A stretch of DNA of 64,000 nt from Gammaproteobacteria bacterium. GTDB taxonomy: Bacteria; Pseudomonadota; Gammaproteobacteria; Eutrophobiales; Eutrophobiaceae. The translations under genes and the position numbers were made by a program. How positions within the stretch are numbered: the first letter of the stretch is position 1; every line of letters begins with the position of its first letter. The DNA lies in NCBI GenBank assembly GCA_041556555.1, contig JBFFIE010000002.1, positions 40,505 to 104,504 on the forward strand. Reading direction: 5' to 3'. The notes below the pieces were generated by a model that ran no database searches, was not told where the DNA came from, and saw only the letters and a program-made list of their open reading frames with translations. This document shows positions 36,307 to 43,874 of this stretch, piece after piece.

Positions 36307-36468
36307 TTTATTTTCTCCCGGTTGCTGCGTTATCCCGTAAGCAGAGGCAGGTAAACAAATGCATTCTAACATACAGCTGATGGAGGTTAATTGATTTGCG
36401 CCACAGGTAAGGTCAGGCATGCTGTATAATGAATAGACAGTCACAATCACCACTCACAGGGGTTAACC

Positions 36469-36933
36469 ATGCAGGGCAACAAGAAAGTCATTGAATACCT
36501 TAACCGCGCCTTGAAGAATGAGCTAACGGCGATCAACCAGTATTTCCTGCATGCGAGGATGTTCAAGAACTGGGGCTATGGCGGCCTTAATGAACATGAG
36601 TACCATGAATCGATTGATGAGATGAAACATGCGGACGCCCTGGTTGAACATATCCTGTTTCTCGAGGGCCTACCGAATCTCCAGGGTCTGGGCAAACTGT
36701 ATATCGGGGAAACGCCGCAGGAGGTACTGGAATGCGATCTGAAACTGGAAATGGAAGCAATGCCCTTGCTGCGTGAGGCGATAGCCTGTTGCGAGGAATG
36801 CCAGGATTATGTCTCGCGAGATTTGCTGGCAGGCATCCTGAAAGATGAAGAAGAGCACGTGGACTGGCTGGAAACCCAGCTTGGGCTTATTAAGGAACTC
36901 GGTCTGGACAAATATCTACAGACCAAGGTTTAA
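36469..36933 (+). CDS. bfr: Bacterioferritin
   Basis: 154 aa. [31 protein letters not shown], ferroxidase-centre Glu/His, and the haem-ligand Met52 region. A TATAAT -10 element lies at 36427-36432. Confidence 0.95.
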
Positions 36934-36968
36934 GATAACTTACTGAATATTAAATTAATTTGCACATG

Positions 36969-36993
36969 TCCCGGGCAAACCGGGATATTTTTT
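36969..36993 (+). terminator. Rho-independent terminator of bfr
   Basis: TCCCGG-gcaaa-CCGGGA followed by TATTTTTTAT. Confidence 0.7.
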
Positions 36994-37000
36994 ATATATT

Positions 37001-40058: not shown

Positions 40059-40084
40059 CAGAACCCGTCACAGTATGACTTGAG

Positions 40085-41140
40085 GTGAATATGAAGTTGA
40101 TGAAATCAAAAACAGCGGAGCTCTTATTTTCGGGCCTGATGATAATTCTGGTAGGCATTACTTTTTCTGTTACGGCTGATGAGTCTGATAAGGTCATTAA
40201 TATTTACTCCGAGAGAAAAGAAGAGCTGATAAAGCCCTTGCTGGATCGCTTTTCTGAAACTACCGGTATTAAGGTGAATATGATCACTGCCAAGGGAGAT
40301 GCCCTGATCAAGCGGCTTGAGATTGAAGGTAAGAACAGTCCAGCGGATATTCTGTTGACGACGGACGTGGCAAGACTCTACCGGGCCAAGTCACTGGGAC
40401 TGTTACAGCCGATTGAGTCGGACCTTATAAAGGCCACAGTACCTGCAAATTTCCGTGACACCGAAAGCACCTGGTTTGGGTTGTCACTGCGTGCGAGGGT
40501 CATCGTCTATGCGCGCAATCGTGTCGACCCCGAAGACCTGAGTTCTTACGAGGCACTGGCTGATCCGGAATGGAAAGGCCGGGTGTGTGTCCGCTCGTCC
40601 TCCAATGCCTATAATCAGTCGCTGGTTTCCAGCATGATCGTTCATAATGGTCTTGAAGTAACCGAAGACTGGGCAAAGGGACTGGTCGATAATTTTGCCC
40701 GCCGGCCCAAAGGTGGGGACCGCGACCAGATCAAGGCCGTAGCCGTGGGTGAATGTGATGTGGCATTGGTAAATACTTACTACCTGGGTGGCATGCTACA
40801 TTCGGACATCAAGGCAGAGAAAGCTGCCGCAGAGAAAGTTGGTTTGTTCTGGCCTAACCAGTCCGGCCGTGGTGCTCATTTTAATGTCAGCGGTATTGGC
40901 GTAACCCGTTCGGCTGTGCATGTGGATGCTGCCACCCGCCTGATTGAGTTTCTATTGAATGATGAATCCCAGGCCTGGTATGCCGAGGCCAATTATGAGT
41001 ATCCGGTCAAACCAGGCATCCCGGCCAGCGCTACGCTGCAAGCCTGGGGTGATTATAAAGCTGATCCGATCAAACTCGACCAGTTGGGACAGCACAATGC
41101 CGAGGCCGTGAGGCTCATGGACCGTGCCGGCTGGAAATAG
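40085..41140 (+). CDS. fbpA: Fe(3+) ABC transporter periplasmic binding protein
   Basis: 351 aa. Signal peptide. FbpA/AfuA fold. Confidence 0.85.
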   Translation: MNMKLMKSKTAELLFSGLMIILVGITFSVTADESDKVINIYSERKEELIKPLLDRFSETTGIKVNMITAKGDALIKRLEIEGKNSPADILLTTDVARLYRAKSLGLLQPIESDLIKATVPANFRDTESTWFGLSLRARVIVYARNRVDPEDLSSYEALADPEWKGRVCVRSSSNAYNQSLVSSMIVHNGLEVTEDWAKGLVDNFARRPKGGDRDQIKAVAVGECDVALVNTYYLGGMLHSDIKAEKAAAEKVGLFWPNQSGRGAHFNVSGIGVTRSAVHVDAATRLIEFLLNDESQAWYAEANYEYPVKPGIPASATLQAWGDYKADPIKLDQLGQHNAEAVRLMDRAGWK

Positions 41141-41155
41141 CTGATGCCAGGGTAG

Positions 41156-42841
41156 ATGTCTACAACCGCCTCTGCAATGACGACCAGCCAGCGACACTTG
41201 CCGGGCCGGTCGCCAAGTGCAACAGTTTTGTTTGTGCTGGCATCATTGATCTCGCTGCCACTGCTGGTCATTGTCTTTTCCGTCTTCAATCCGGCTCCCG
41301 AAATCTGGAGGCATTTGCTGGATACCGTACTTTCCGAGTACATCCTGAATTCAATTAAACTGATGCTGGGTGTAGGTCTGCTAAGCCTGATACTGGGCAT
41401 TGTACCGGCCTGGCTCACGACCATGTTCCGGTTTCCGTTCAGCAAACAACTTGAATGGGCGTTGTTATTGCCACTGGCCATGCCGGCCTACATCATTGCC
41501 TATACCTACACCGGTGCCCTGGATGCCTCCGGGCCGATACAAACACTGATTCGGGATCTGACCGGGTGGGGATTCCGGGATTACTGGTTTCCTGAAATCC
41601 GGTCCATGGGCGGGGCGATCACCATGCTGGCGTTTGTCCTGTATCCTTATATATATCTGATCACCCGCGCAGCATTTATTAATCAATCGGTTTGTTCACT
41701 GGAGGCTGCACGCACACTTGGTTGCGGGCCCTGGAAAGTATTTTTCAGAATAGCCCTGCCACTGGCTCGCCCCGGTATTATCGTCGGGCTCAGTCTGGTA
41801 TTGATGGAAACTCTGGCTGACTACGGCACCGTTCAGTATTTCGGAATCTCGGCATTTACCACTGGTATCTTTCGGACCTGGTTTGGTCTGGGAAACAGTG
41901 CCGCCGCGGCGCAGTTGTCGGCATTGCTGATGGTATTTGTGGCGGTGCTGGTCTATGTTGAGTACTGGTCACGCCAAAAGCAACGTTATCATCACATCTC
42001 GACACGTTTCAGTAGTCTGGTGCAGAAGCCAATACATGGATACCAGGCCGTGATCGCCACAATCGTATGTAGCCTGCCCGTGATTGCCGGGTTCATAATC
42101 CCGGTTTGCTTCCAGGTGAACTGGGCATTGCTGACCTATGTTGATGTCATTGATTCGGCCTTTCTTACCCTGATTTGGCACAGCGTTCTGCTTGCGGGGC
42201 TGGCCGCAGTAATTGCCACTGCGCTGTCATTGTTCATGGCCTACGGCAAGCGACAGACCGCTTCCACATTTACCCGCCTGGCCGTCAATATGTCAGGCAT
42301 GGGTTACGCCATCCCGGGCACTGTCATCGCCGTCGGGGTAATGTTGCCTCTGGCCTGGGTGGACAAGATGGTAGACAGCTATTTCCGGTCCCACTTTGAT
42401 GTCAGCACGGGACTGATACTGAGTGGGACCCTGTTTGCCCTGTTGTTTGCCTACACGGTGCGTTTTCTTGCCGTGTCATTGAAGACAGTGGATGCCGGGC
42501 TGACGAAGATCAAACCATCCATGGAAGAGGCCGGGCGCAGTCTGGGCTTGGGCGAGTTTCGCCTGCTCAGGCAAGTTCATATTCCGATGATGCGCGGAAG
42601 TTTACTGGCCGCATTTCTCCTGGTATTTGTTGATGTCCTCAAGGAACTTCCGGCAACACTCATACTGCGACCTTTCAATTTTAATACCCTGGCCATCCGG
42701 GCCTATGAGTTGGCCAACGAGGAGCGCCTTGCGGATGCTGCCTGTCCCTCGCTTGCCATCGTGCTGGTCGGTATTATTCCGGTTATTTACCTGAGCCAGT
42801 CCATTTCGAAATCACGACCCGGCCATGAATTCAACGCTTGA
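41156..42841 (+). CDS. fbpB: Fe(3+) ABC transporter permease (fused two-domain)
   Basis: 561 aa. 12 TM helices and two EAA-like loops, typical of FbpB/HitB. Confidence 0.85.
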   Translation: MSTTASAMTTSQRHLPGRSPSATVLFVLASLISLPLLVIVFSVFNPAPEIWRHLLDTVLSEYILNSIKLMLGVGLLSLILGIVPAWLTTMFRFPFSKQLEWALLLPLAMPAYIIAYTYTGALDASGPIQTLIRDLTGWGFRDYWFPEIRSMGGAITMLAFVLYPYIYLITRAAFINQSVCSLEAARTLGCGPWKVFFRIALPLARPGIIVGLSLVLMETLADYGTVQYFGISAFTTGIFRTWFGLGNSAAAAQLSALLMVFVAVLVYVEYWSRQKQRYHHISTRFSSLVQKPIHGYQAVIATIVCSLPVIAGFIIPVCFQVNWALLTYVDVIDSAFLTLIWHSVLLAGLAAVIATALSLFMAYGKRQTASTFTRLAVNMSGMGYAIPGTVIAVGVMLPLAWVDKMVDSYFRSHFDVSTGLILSGTLFALLFAYTVRFLAVSLKTVDAGLTKIKPSMEEAGRSLGLGEFRLLRQVHIPMMRGSLLAAFLLVFVDVLKELPATLILRPFNFNTLAIRAYELANEERLADAACPSLAIVLVGIIPVIYLSQSISKSRPGHEFNA

Positions 42842-43874
42842 ATTAAAAAACGTCTCGGTTGCGATTGAAGGGCGCACGATCCTTGATTCTATTTCCTTTG
42901 ATCTGACCGAGGGGGATATCGGCTGTTTGCTGGGTCCCAGCGGTTGTGGCAAGACCACGTTACTGCGGACCATTGCCGGATTTGAGCAGCCGTTTGAGGG
43001 AGAAGTCTGGATCAGCGGCATCAGGGCCAGTGACAAACGCCACCTGGTGGCCGTTGAGCAACGTCAGGTTGGTATGGTGTTTCAGGATTTTGCCCTGTTT
43101 CCACACATGACAGTCAAGGAGAACATCGCCTTTGGTCTCACCGGGCTTTCCGGCAGGCACCGCAAGCAGCGCATCCGGGAGCTGGTCGATTTACTCAAAA
43201 TGGATGATTTCCTGAATAAATACCCGCATCGTTTGTCCGGTGGTCAGCAACAGCGGGTTGCACTGGCGCGCGCCATAGCCAGCCGCCCGCGGGTCTTGTT
43301 GCTGGATGAGCCGTTCGCCAGCATGGACATAGAATTACGTGAGCACTTGGCCCGGGAGGTTCGTGAAATCCTCAAGCAGGATGGCATGACTGCCGTGCTC
43401 GTTAGCCACAACCAGCTGGAGGCCTTTGCCATGGCAGATGTGGTTGGCGTAATTAACGATGGCCGCCTGTTGCAATGGGATACTGCGTTCAATCTCTATC
43501 ACCGGCCGGGCAATGCCTACATTGCTGATTTTATCGGCGAAGGGGTTTTTATCCCGGGTACGGTGATTGGGGAAAAATCAGTTGAAACGGAACTCGGGAT
43601 TATTTCAGGTTCTGCACCGTTGGCGGCCTTACCGGGCAGCCCGGTGAATGTCTTGATTCGGCCTGATGATATTTTGCATGATGATGACAGCACGATGACG
43701 GCCGTAGTACGTAAAAAGGCATTCAGGGGCGCTGAATTCCTTTATACCCTGGCACTGGATAGTGGGACGCAACTCCTGAGCCTGGTCCCGAGTCACCATA
43801 ACCATCCCGTGAATGAAGCCATCGGGATCCGTCTGGAAATCGACCACCTGGTTGTTTTCCCGCTAGAGGCCTGA
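42825..43874 (+). CDS. fbpC: Fe(3+) ABC transporter ATP-binding protein
   Basis: 349 aa. Walker A GPSGCGKTT, LSGGQQQRVALARA, Walker B LLLDEPFASMD, and a C-terminal TOBE-like domain. Confidence 0.9.
   Translation: MNSTLELKNVSVAIEGRTILDSISFDLTEGDIGCLLGPSGCGKTTLLRTIAGFEQPFEGEVWISGIRASDKRHLVAVEQRQVGMVFQDFALFPHMTVKENIAFGLTGLSGRHRKQRIRELVDLLKMDDFLNKYPHRLSGGQQQRVALARAIASRPRVLLLDEPFASMDIELREHLAREVREILKQDGMTAVLVSHNQLEAFAMADVVGVINDGRLLQWDTAFNLYHRPGNAYIADFIGEGVFIPGTVIGEKSVETELGIISGSAPLAALPGSPVNVLIRPDDILHDDDSTMTAVVRKKAFRGAEFLYTLALDSGTQLLSLVPSHHNHPVNEAIGIRLEIDHLVVFPLEA

Follow-up and report, generated by a model that had tools for sequence, protein, structure and literature searches.

A cluster of eight consecutive plus-strand genes at positions 36469-43874 of the DNA analysed here, a stretch of 64,000 nucleotides (nt) from contig JBFFIE010000002.1 of a Gammaproteobacteria bacterium (assembly GCA_041556555.1; hereafter the window), encodes, with a probability that we put at roughly 60%, a module for reductive iron uptake that is repressed by Fur, independent of TonB and here coupled to iron import and storage. 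The genes specify, in order, a bacterioferritin (bfr), a Bfd-type ferredoxin (bfd), an outer-membrane porin, an FMN_bind protein, a PepSY_TM protein, and the periplasmic iron-binding protein, fused permease and ATPase of a FutA-type ATP-binding cassette (ABC) importer. A first-pass annotation of the window had assigned these families, and the translations of the open reading frames (ORFs) and their Pfam and NCBIfam scores agree with it. Bacterioferritin, Bfd and the FutA-type importer are ordinary; the unusual part of the cluster is the triad formed by the porin, FMN_bind and PepSY_TM genes. The occurrence of three iron modules in varied arrangements, together with the Fur boxes described below, makes an iron function the best-supported reading of this triad, whose members are:

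37403-38704, plus strand: outer-membrane porin, 433 amino acids (aa); PF07396 (Porin_O_P), 35 bits against a cut-off of 20.9
Parts of the porin: signal peptide; coiled-coil stalk, residues 29-81 (nt 37487-37645); 16-strand barrel, residues 95-432
38804-39328, plus strand: probably secreted FMN-binding protein, 174 aa from ATG 38804; PF04205, 27.3 bits (cut-off 22); TTG at 38795 or 38777 as other possible starts
39330-40058, plus strand: two-helix PepSY_TM membrane protein, 242 aa; PF03929, 57.7 bits against a cut-off of 28.8

Scanning one genome per species brought up at least 574 relatives; 80 loci were fetched, and 84 loci (referred to by L numbers) were compared by tblastn and clustering of their ORFs. 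Wherever the contig allows, the porin, FMN_bind and PepSY_TM genes follow one another in this order and on the same strand. The porin gene is present in 78 of the 84 loci, all six exceptions lying at contig ends, and the PepSY_TM gene in 81. In two loci (L026, L038) the porin and FMN_bind genes are followed by sufficient sequence, yet by no PepSY_TM match of at least 40% coverage, which divergence, loss or misassembly could explain. Clustering of the flanking ORFs of the 84 loci revealed no recurrent fourth partner, the next family being found in 22 loci as a matter of local synteny. Nearly all carriers of the triad are uncultured Gammaproteobacteria, sampled in marine settings, sediments, sponges and groundwater, and the FMN_bind homologues, which number in the thousands, are almost all without a name or from metagenome-assembled genomes (MAGs) labelled "Gammaproteobacteria bacterium". 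Seven loci (L016, L027, L057, L066, L072, L080, L084) belong to MAGs whose labels read Gemmatimonadota, Planctomycetota, Burkholderiales, Puniceicoccaceae/Coraliomargarita, Polaribacter or Sphingomonadales; the 52-62% identity between their proteins and those of the gammaproteobacterial loci points to binning contamination or recent transfer.

Outside the triad, linkage is looser. The bfr-bfd pair adjoins the triad in 19 loci and FutA-type ABC genes do so in 15, and both, either or neither of the two may be present: the triad is accompanied by ABC genes without bfr in L018, L027, L033 and L063, by bfr-bfd without ABC genes in L011, L020, L022 and L045, and stands alone in L005 and about 50 other loci. 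The first-pass annotation spoke of an iron island; the iron-related neighbours are indeed there, but they form three modules of which only the triad is invariably linked, and "cluster" is the better word for an assembly that is not indivisible. A horizontally acquired island was considered and ruled out, the content of guanine plus cytosine being unremarkable and without shift, the flanks syntenic in relatives, and the only two tRNAs of the window (Rfam) lying about 12 kb from the cluster on either side.

That the three modules also occur apart, that most bfr- or ABC-bearing loci share M3-peptidase/LemA/GcvH flanks and that no partner recurs beyond the triad are all suggestive of another explanation, namely that bfr-bfd, the triad and the ABC genes are independent, thematically related neighbours kept together by inherited synteny in one clade, the triad itself performing some other periplasmic redox job such as repair or detoxification in iron stress. 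We consider this explanation unlikely, although it deserves some weight. Adjacency to iron genes recurs in new orders and flanks: the order is bfd-bfr in L067, bfd follows PepSY_TM in L061, the ABC genes lie on the opposite strand in L030, L007 has ABC genes with an extra porin, and in L090, a distant locus with other flanks, a convergent bfd-bfr pair stands beside the triad together with YggX-type and Fe-S assembly genes. A cultured carrier, Dasania sp. GY-MA-18 (Cellvibrionales), has feoA-feoB immediately ahead of the triad and a Fur box preceding both feoA (14/19) and the porin gene (16/19; counts are matches to the E. coli 19-mer consensus throughout), and feoB is directly upstream of the triad in L056 and L082 as well. 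Fur boxes are moreover found upstream of the porin gene in loci with no other iron gene nearby, and in the window the borders between bfd and porin and between PepSY_TM and the iron-binding protein are tightly spaced and free of terminators.

The regulatory evidence includes three overlapping or adjoining sites between bfr and bfd:

36966-36993, plus strand: terminator-like hairpin after bfr, nine-pair stem ATGTCCCGGGCAAACCGGGATAT, then TTTTT
37003-37031, plus strand: promoter-like site TTGAGA-17 nt-TATTAT, sigma-70-like (10/12), 38-66 nt 5' of bfd
37005-37023, plus strand: candidate Fur box GAGAATGATTTTTATTTAG before bfd, 13/19 consensus, covering the -35 box and spacer of the promoter-like site

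Both the terminator after bfr and the Fur-box candidacy of the AT-rich motif before bfd had been proposed at first pass, and both were upheld. Since consensus counting alone discriminates poorly (30 window sites reach at least 13/19 against about 10 expected), we relied on footprinting of the relatives and on an independent matrix, which was built only from 21 porin-upstream sites of relatives without bfd. In a scan with this matrix, a step that the first-pass annotation had recommended, the site at 37005 is the top match of the whole 64-kb window with 22.3 bits, as compared with a shuffled-window maximum of 15.1 +/- 1.7 bits (highest 18.9 in 40 shuffles). Overlapping 12/19 matches surround it at 36999, 37011 and 37023, in 6-nt steps, and a GATAATnATTCTCATTA-type box is kept at the orthologous position, 58-75 nt before bfd, in most related loci (16/19 in L009; 15/19 in L001, L003, L052 and L061). 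Matrix score, promoter overlap and conserved position together make the AT-rich site a credible Fur box. The second-best matrix match (GATTATGAATATCATTGGT, 55655-55673, 15.4-15.7 bits) lies inside a ribose-phosphate pyrophosphokinase gene, within the range of the shuffles, and is probably due to chance. No fur gene was found among the 40 window ORFs scanned.

The other Fur motif claimed at first pass, immediately before the porin gene (AATCATTAATCTTGCCATTCATT, 37348-37370), did not rise above chance: the best count in 37279-37402 is 10/19, the motif scores at most 4.3 bits with the matrix, and with a mixed bfd-plus-porin matrix it reaches 1.5 bits, rank 161 in the window. Across the family, boxes of at least 14/19 are present within the 200 nt upstream of the porin gene in 32 of 75 relatives, several of them reaching 16-17/19, whereas only 2 of 160 intergenic regions used as controls have one (Fisher 1.8e-16); examples are the boxes of L020 and L015 (17/19 each) and that of Dasania.

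How the window porin might come under Fur control is suggested by the layout of the transcript. Terminator-like sites were found neither between bfd and porin nor between PepSY_TM and the iron-binding protein, so that regulation of the porin gene most plausibly stems from the bfd promoter. From FMN_bind on to the ATPase the genes are separated by 1-32 nt or overlap, the PepSY_TM start lying one base after the FMN_bind stop codon. A strong hairpin lies within this stretch:

38744-38773, plus strand: hairpin between the porin and FMN_bind genes, 13 pairs, -27.6 kcal/mol; probable partial terminator or attenuator

In 46 of 74 relatives the porin-FMN_bind gap holds a hairpin with an energy of -15 kcal/mol or below, frequently with a T-run behind it and of widely varying sequence; among 215 other co-directional gaps the share is 26%. 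In the window the distance from the hairpin to the FMN_bind start is only 30 nt, too little for a promoter, and FMN_bind and the later genes are for this reason probably expressed by read-through. The most likely transcript, as judged from these signals, is a Fur-controlled bfd-porin-FMN_bind-PepSY_TM-ABC message with an attenuating hairpin after the porin, which would set a high ratio of porin to reductase.

The predicted reductase includes the PepSY_TM protein. By analogy with FoxB and PiuB, the FMN_bind/PepSY_TM pair had been likened at first pass to periplasmic ferric reductases. FoxB, the inner-membrane ferrioxamine reductase of P. aeruginosa (PDB 7ABW; relatives FpvG, FhuB, FsrB, HiuB and PiuB), binds two b haems via conserved His residues and reduces Fe(III) in the periplasm, its helix 3 bearing H198, a ligand of the cytoplasmic haem (FoxB preprint). 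The likeness resides in the His-bearing helix motifs. A comparison of the single window sequence with FoxB is insignificant (E 0.55), whereas a profile of 44 sequences matches it at E 1.3e-5, the WHRxxG motif and helix 1 aligning with FoxB helices 1 and 3, and DLHSGRxxG and helix 2 with FoxB helices 2 and 4. H10 and H206 are invariant among the 44 sequences and H33 is at least 90% conserved. The likeness ends at the membrane. In the structural model, two transmembrane helices (residues 2-32 and 213-241) carry a periplasmic domain folded as a half beta-propeller, with no PepSY (PF03413-type) domain, whereas a single FoxB chain comprises four helices together with two PepSY domains; the two-helix protein would therefore have to dimerize. 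It looks like half of the duplicated haem core of FoxB topped by a half-propeller, and one would naturally infer a homodimer that has two b haems and a six-blade propeller. The haems of this dimer would sit on His10/His10' and His206/His206', reproducing the four-helix core of FoxB, and through it electrons would travel from membrane or cytoplasm to the side facing the periplasm. A di-haem core is also shared by PepSY-like and MsrQ-like proteins according to later work. FoxB further works behind a TonB-dependent siderophore receptor; here a porin takes that place and the flavoprotein partner is separate, no TonB-dependent receptor being found among the recurrent neighbours of the triad, whose upstream gene is the porin in the 78 loci mentioned above. 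The family is large, with 1,239 clusters at 50% identity (E <=1e-30), and the best 150 representatives listed measure 235-364 aa.

PepSY-like flavinylated systems have been described as a bioinformatic class of predicted extracytosolic iron reductases comprising 3,220 clusters, in which a PF03929/PF16357 membrane protein is encoded beside a secreted [S/T]GA[S/T] protein, as it is here (Meheust et al. 2021, eLife, PMC8238504). The same study proposed that these PepSY-like clusters take part in reducing and assimilating iron and remarked that some members are repressed by Fur. Its clusters mostly contain ApbE, DUF2271 and DUF4198, to which a TonB receptor, VIT1 or an NAD-binding domain is at times added, and its PepSY-like proteins have three transmembrane helices; the system of the window differs in its PF04205 flavin carrier, in the absence of ApbE from the cluster, in a membrane protein of two helices plus half-propeller, and in a stalked porin as invariable third partner. 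PMC8238504 makes no mention of a porin.

Since the PepSY_TM superfamily is very diverse and includes CrpH, which supports haem-copper oxidase function and has the same conserved His motifs (PMC13038864), the triad might instead reduce another metal, for example Cu(II), or some other periplasmic oxidant, its link to iron being regulatory only. The propeller domain, which has no invariant residues resembling metal ligands, is in keeping with such a role. We nevertheless think it very unlikely: the enrichment of Fur boxes and the feoAB, FutA-type and bfr-bfd neighbours all point to iron, and the two-helix family is distinct from the proteins of at least four helices discussed for CrpH. A copper role in particular was rejected on genomic context, copper-related genes never being recurrent beside the triad.

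In the proposed reductive uptake module, the second redox component is the FMN_bind protein. The DGISGATLS motif to which the first reading had drawn attention is genuine: D142-G-I-S-G-A-T148 is kept across 24 homologues, in which D142, G146, A147 and T148 never vary and S145 is the same in at least 90%. S145-G146-A147-T148 fits the ApbE target motif [S/T]GA[S/T] (PMC8238504), and Thr148 (codon 39245-39247) is the predicted site of flavinylation. All homologues begin with a hydrophobic N-terminus followed by small residues, as judged from the alignment. Carrying FMN covalently on Thr148, attached by an ApbE encoded elsewhere, the protein would take electrons and reduce Fe(III). The family is divergent: its profile, compared with the solved structures, found no FMN_bind structure and returned noise only. 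Residues 37-99 (38912-39100; VLRLRYW...LEEIGK), outside the Pfam FMN_bind match (93-171), are highly conserved and attract weak matches to sigma-70 region 4 in NCBIfam and the PDB (E 3e-4 to 0.05). We dismissed these sigma-70/RpoD matches, which almost certainly reflect a chance VLRLRxxxDGRTxxLEEIGK resemblance in a probably secreted protein.

The porin was described at first pass as a coiled-coil protein deserving structure-based annotation. Coiled-coil-type matches cover residues 25-85 and the AlphaFold model has a helix at 29-81 and 16 strands; its best Foldseek matches are the OmpC/OmpF-type trimeric porins OmpC, OmpF and OmpK36 (E about 1e-11; TM-score 0.65, normalised to the target). An alignment of 40 members of this unusually well conserved family (65% mean identity) reveals 23 invariant Asp/Glu, 7 His and 13 Arg/Lys residues, and the porin has an alternating Glu pattern, E142-x-E144-x-E146-H147 and E159-x-E161, on the adjacent strands 137-147 and 157-168. 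In the stalk, W33, Q40, I43, L46 and L50 are among the invariant residues and the tip has the conserved sequence PSxEEMWxIIQQQQ. The heptads of the stalk, with Val at a and Thr at d, suit a trimeric coil. A trimeric porin whose barrel bears these invariant Glu, Asp and His residues would admit inorganic or weakly complexed iron to the periplasm, into which its coiled-coil stalk would point. A structural analogue, at Foldseek rank 34, is OmpM1 of Veillonella parvula (PDB 8BYT), likewise a 16-strand trimeric barrel behind a coiled-coil stalk. The stalk of OmpM1 ends in a peptidoglycan-binding SLH domain, whereas the window porin has none, its mature form beginning at the conserved stalk tip.

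Alternatively, the porin could be an ordinary phosphate or anion porin of the OprO/OprP type that merely lies upstream of the FMN_bind/PepSY_TM pair, as the Porin_O_P score and the designation "OprO/OprP family phosphate-selective porin" given to some relatives in databases might imply. This we regard as extremely improbable. Neither the sequence nor the 40-sequence profile finds solved OprP or OprO at E values up to 10, and membership was rejected at the sequence level; the porin gene is invariably the first of the triad and the one with the Fur box before it; and its invariant residues are mostly Glu, Asp and His and its coiled-coil stalk is conserved. We know of no such stalk in OprP.

A porin combined with redox proteins loosely recalls the porin-cytochrome conduits, in which case electrons would flow outward and the triad would serve extracellular electron transfer or iron oxidation in respiration or lithotrophy. 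Elsewhere in the window are a phosphoribulokinase gene (10679-11557), two c-type cytochrome genes (23276-23800 and 27375-27989) and a Fer2-FAD-NAD reductase gene (8915-9943), a gene content that hints at a chemolithoautotrophic gammaproteobacterium. In three loci (L090:7822-8310, L007:9295-9795 and L062:11354-11782), the gene after PepSY_TM encodes a conserved protein of about 165 aa whose N-terminus is signal-like and which bears CxxCH (ACMTCH) C-terminally. These proteins, 60-69% identical to one another and without counterpart in the window, look like cytochrome c'-type periplasmic haem proteins and may be an optional fourth redox component; their position after the triad is consistent with a redox role, and they could equally be cited for an outward conduit. 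To such a conduit we attach very little credence. A 16-strand OmpC-like barrel is too narrow for a redox protein, Fur repression is typical of assimilatory rather than respiratory genes, the neighbours are those of uptake and storage, and multihaem cytochromes are absent.

On the storage side of the module stand the first two genes of the cluster:

36469-36933, plus strand: bfr, bacterioferritin, 154 aa; TIGR00754, 245.3 bits against a cut-off of 125.55; Pfam Ferritin 2e-39
37069-37278, plus strand: bfd, Bfd-type [2Fe-2S] ferredoxin, 69 aa; PF04324 (Fer2_BFD), 39 bits against a cut-off of 26

By their family scores, Bfr and Bfd are bona fide members. The Bfr translation has E18 (in NEL), E51, M52 and H54 (in DEMKH), E94, and E127 and H130 (in DEEEH), which we take, following the numbering of E. 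coli Bfr, to be the Glu and His residues of the ferroxidase centre and the haem ligand Met52. Bfd has its four Cys ligands (Cys4, Cys6, Cys38 and Cys41); against the E. coli Bfd equivalog PRK10509 it scores 23.6 bits where 75 are required, and it is best described as a Bfd-type domain beside bfr rather than an equivalog of E. coli Bfd. Bfd is the ferredoxin that mobilizes iron from bacterioferritin, and bfd is known to be induced by iron starvation. As in the pairs of E. coli (bfd-bfr) and P. aeruginosa (bfrB, bfd), a haem-binding bacterioferritin is coupled with a small [2Fe-2S] ferredoxin and a Fur box precedes bfd. The order here, bfr, terminator, Fur promoter, bfd, departs from these pairs, as do the failure to reach the E. 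coli Bfd model and the fact that bfd appears to head a longer uptake operon. First taken for an inversion, this order turned out to be the norm of the lineage (18 of 19 related loci) and no oddity of one genome, and it fits separate regulation of the two genes: bfr would be transcribed alone, halted by the terminator, to store the imported iron, and bfd, behind its Fur-overlapped promoter, would give rise to Bfd only under iron scarcity.

Two further observations concern bfr. In the two closest relatives, whose proteins are 94-95% identical, the gene is split into ORFs of 75 and 81 aa (L008, about 7670-8140; L089:7147-7612), as a result of a frameshift (pseudogene) or an assembly error, whereas that of the window is intact. 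In 8 of 19 relatives the divergent lemA-bfr gap holds a Fur-like box of 14-15/19 about 105 nt 5' of bfr (AAAAATGATAATTATTCTC in L020, L022 and L045); the window has no such box there (best 11-12/19). On the far side of this gap (34759-36306, minus strand) are a LemA-family gene and a gene for a GIDE-domain membrane protein, which many relatives also keep directly upstream of bfr. For LemA, an ORF of 190 aa with a start near 36306 is more probable than the 239-aa GTG ORF, and its product has a weak, sub-threshold match to the magnetosome protein MamQ (77 vs 250 bits).

Import would be the task of the last three genes:

40091-41140, plus strand: FutA/IdiA-type periplasmic iron-binding protein; ATG at 40091 behind GAGG (start in the ORF list, GTG 40085)
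41156-42841, plus strand: fused double permease, 561 aa, with two BPD_transp_1 stretches; no NCBIfam equivalog above cut-off
42825-43874, plus strand: ABC ATPase with C-terminal TOBE_2, 349 aa; ABC_tran 1.6e-37, TOBE_2 1.6e-11; 17-nt overlap with the permease gene

The earlier designation as a ferric ABC transporter is sustained by the iron-binding protein, a close homologue of solved proteins of this kind: in phmmer searches of the PDB it matches Synechocystis FutA1 (2pt1, 1e-107), Trichodesmium FutA (6g7n, 2e-101) and FutA2 (2voz, 1e-88), further solved relatives being Campylobacter cFbpA (1y4t) and the FbpA proteins of Mannheimia and Bordetella (1q35, 1y9u). The ATPase scores 250 bits with the ferric model PRK11432, whose cut-off is 496. 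Three Tyr residues (in SSSNAYNQ and NTYY) are kept in the iron-binding proteins of the window and all 15 orthologues, in each of which R-H-Y of FutA1 is replaced by R-K-E (40118-40126 in the window), and this replacement sets their coordination class apart from that of FutA1. It suggests that the triad-linked subfamily has a three-Tyr coordination class or a different iron species. The pattern presumably resembles three-Tyr classes such as those of Mannheimia and Bordetella FbpA. By way of this importer iron would be brought into the cell.

Overall, the logic of the proposed module is closest to that of the siderophore-independent reductive uptake of cyanobacteria, in which porins, reduction at the plasma membrane, FutABC and FeoB take part (PMC7676907), and the nearest solved relatives of the window iron-binding protein, FutA1, FutA2 and IdiA, are cyanobacterial. 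There are also clear differences: the host is a gammaproteobacterium, the porin has no SLH domain and the iron-binding protein lacks the His-Tyr pair of FutA1. The candidate reductase of cyanobacteria is an alternative respiratory terminal oxidase, unrelated to the cytochrome b and flavoprotein proposed here.

Several points weigh against our reading of the cluster. About 50 of the 84 triad loci have no adjacent iron gene, and many of the bfr and ABC associations share flanking synteny and hence are not independent events. The window porin has no Fur box of its own, its regulation depending on presumed co-transcription with bfd, and its AlphaFold model is moderately confident (pLDDT 74; below 50 for loop 188-199). 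Neither the 40 window ORFs scanned nor the recurrent neighbours in the 84 loci include an apbE gene. Without the FutA1 His-Tyr pair, the ligand of the iron-binding protein could be Fe3+ with a synergistic anion, a chelate or Fe2+, and relatives of the PepSY_TM protein can serve other metals, as illustrated by CrpH and copper (PMC13038864). Gene content, motifs, models, synteny and Fur-box statistics are direct observations, from which we infer the PepSY_TM dimer and its haem binding, the other cofactors, the direction of electron flow, the substrate and the operon structure, while contact between porin and reductase is proposed; our literature search found no paper or experimental study on the triad. 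The first-pass annotation had envisaged a complete route of entry, reduction, import, storage and mobilization. The iron theme and the idea of a route hold, but the activities along it are predictions. That annotation is partly confirmed in its observations, which were largely right except for one of two Fur motifs, and partly supported in its interpretation, where the theme was right and details were wrong, namely the modularity, the extent of the FoxB likeness (membrane part only) and the gene order, which is normal.

Elsewhere in the window, a TonB-family gene (2844-3812, minus strand) lies directly downstream of that of glutathione synthetase, its start codon being closely preceded by a weak Fur-matrix match (8.6 bits, 3816-3834). 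The 40 window ORFs scanned include no TonB-dependent receptor. A 295-aa ORF at 60846-61733 (minus strand) matches no Pfam family at E <=1e-5.

The stalk and the propeller invite a more speculative picture, which we offer as tentative and rather doubtful in its entirety: the triad might form a trans-envelope machine, in which the stalk tip of the porin docks on the six-bladed propeller of the PepSY_TM dimer with the flavoprotein between them, and iron is reduced at the exit of an acid-lined, iron-selective porin and passed to FutA or Feo. Such a machine might represent a widespread and unrecognized form of TonB- and siderophore-independent high-affinity uptake in uncultured marine and sediment Gammaproteobacteria. 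If the triad is indeed a Fur-controlled reductive uptake system, it would help to explain how abundant bacteria that have no siderophore pathways gain their iron from pools that are inorganic or weakly bound, would extend the FoxB-type haem reductases by a minimal, dimeric form and would give a stalked porin of Proteobacteria its first function. Being cultured and having a feoAB-porin-FMN_bind-PepSY_TM arrangement, Dasania sp. GY-MA-18 makes this hypothesis directly testable.

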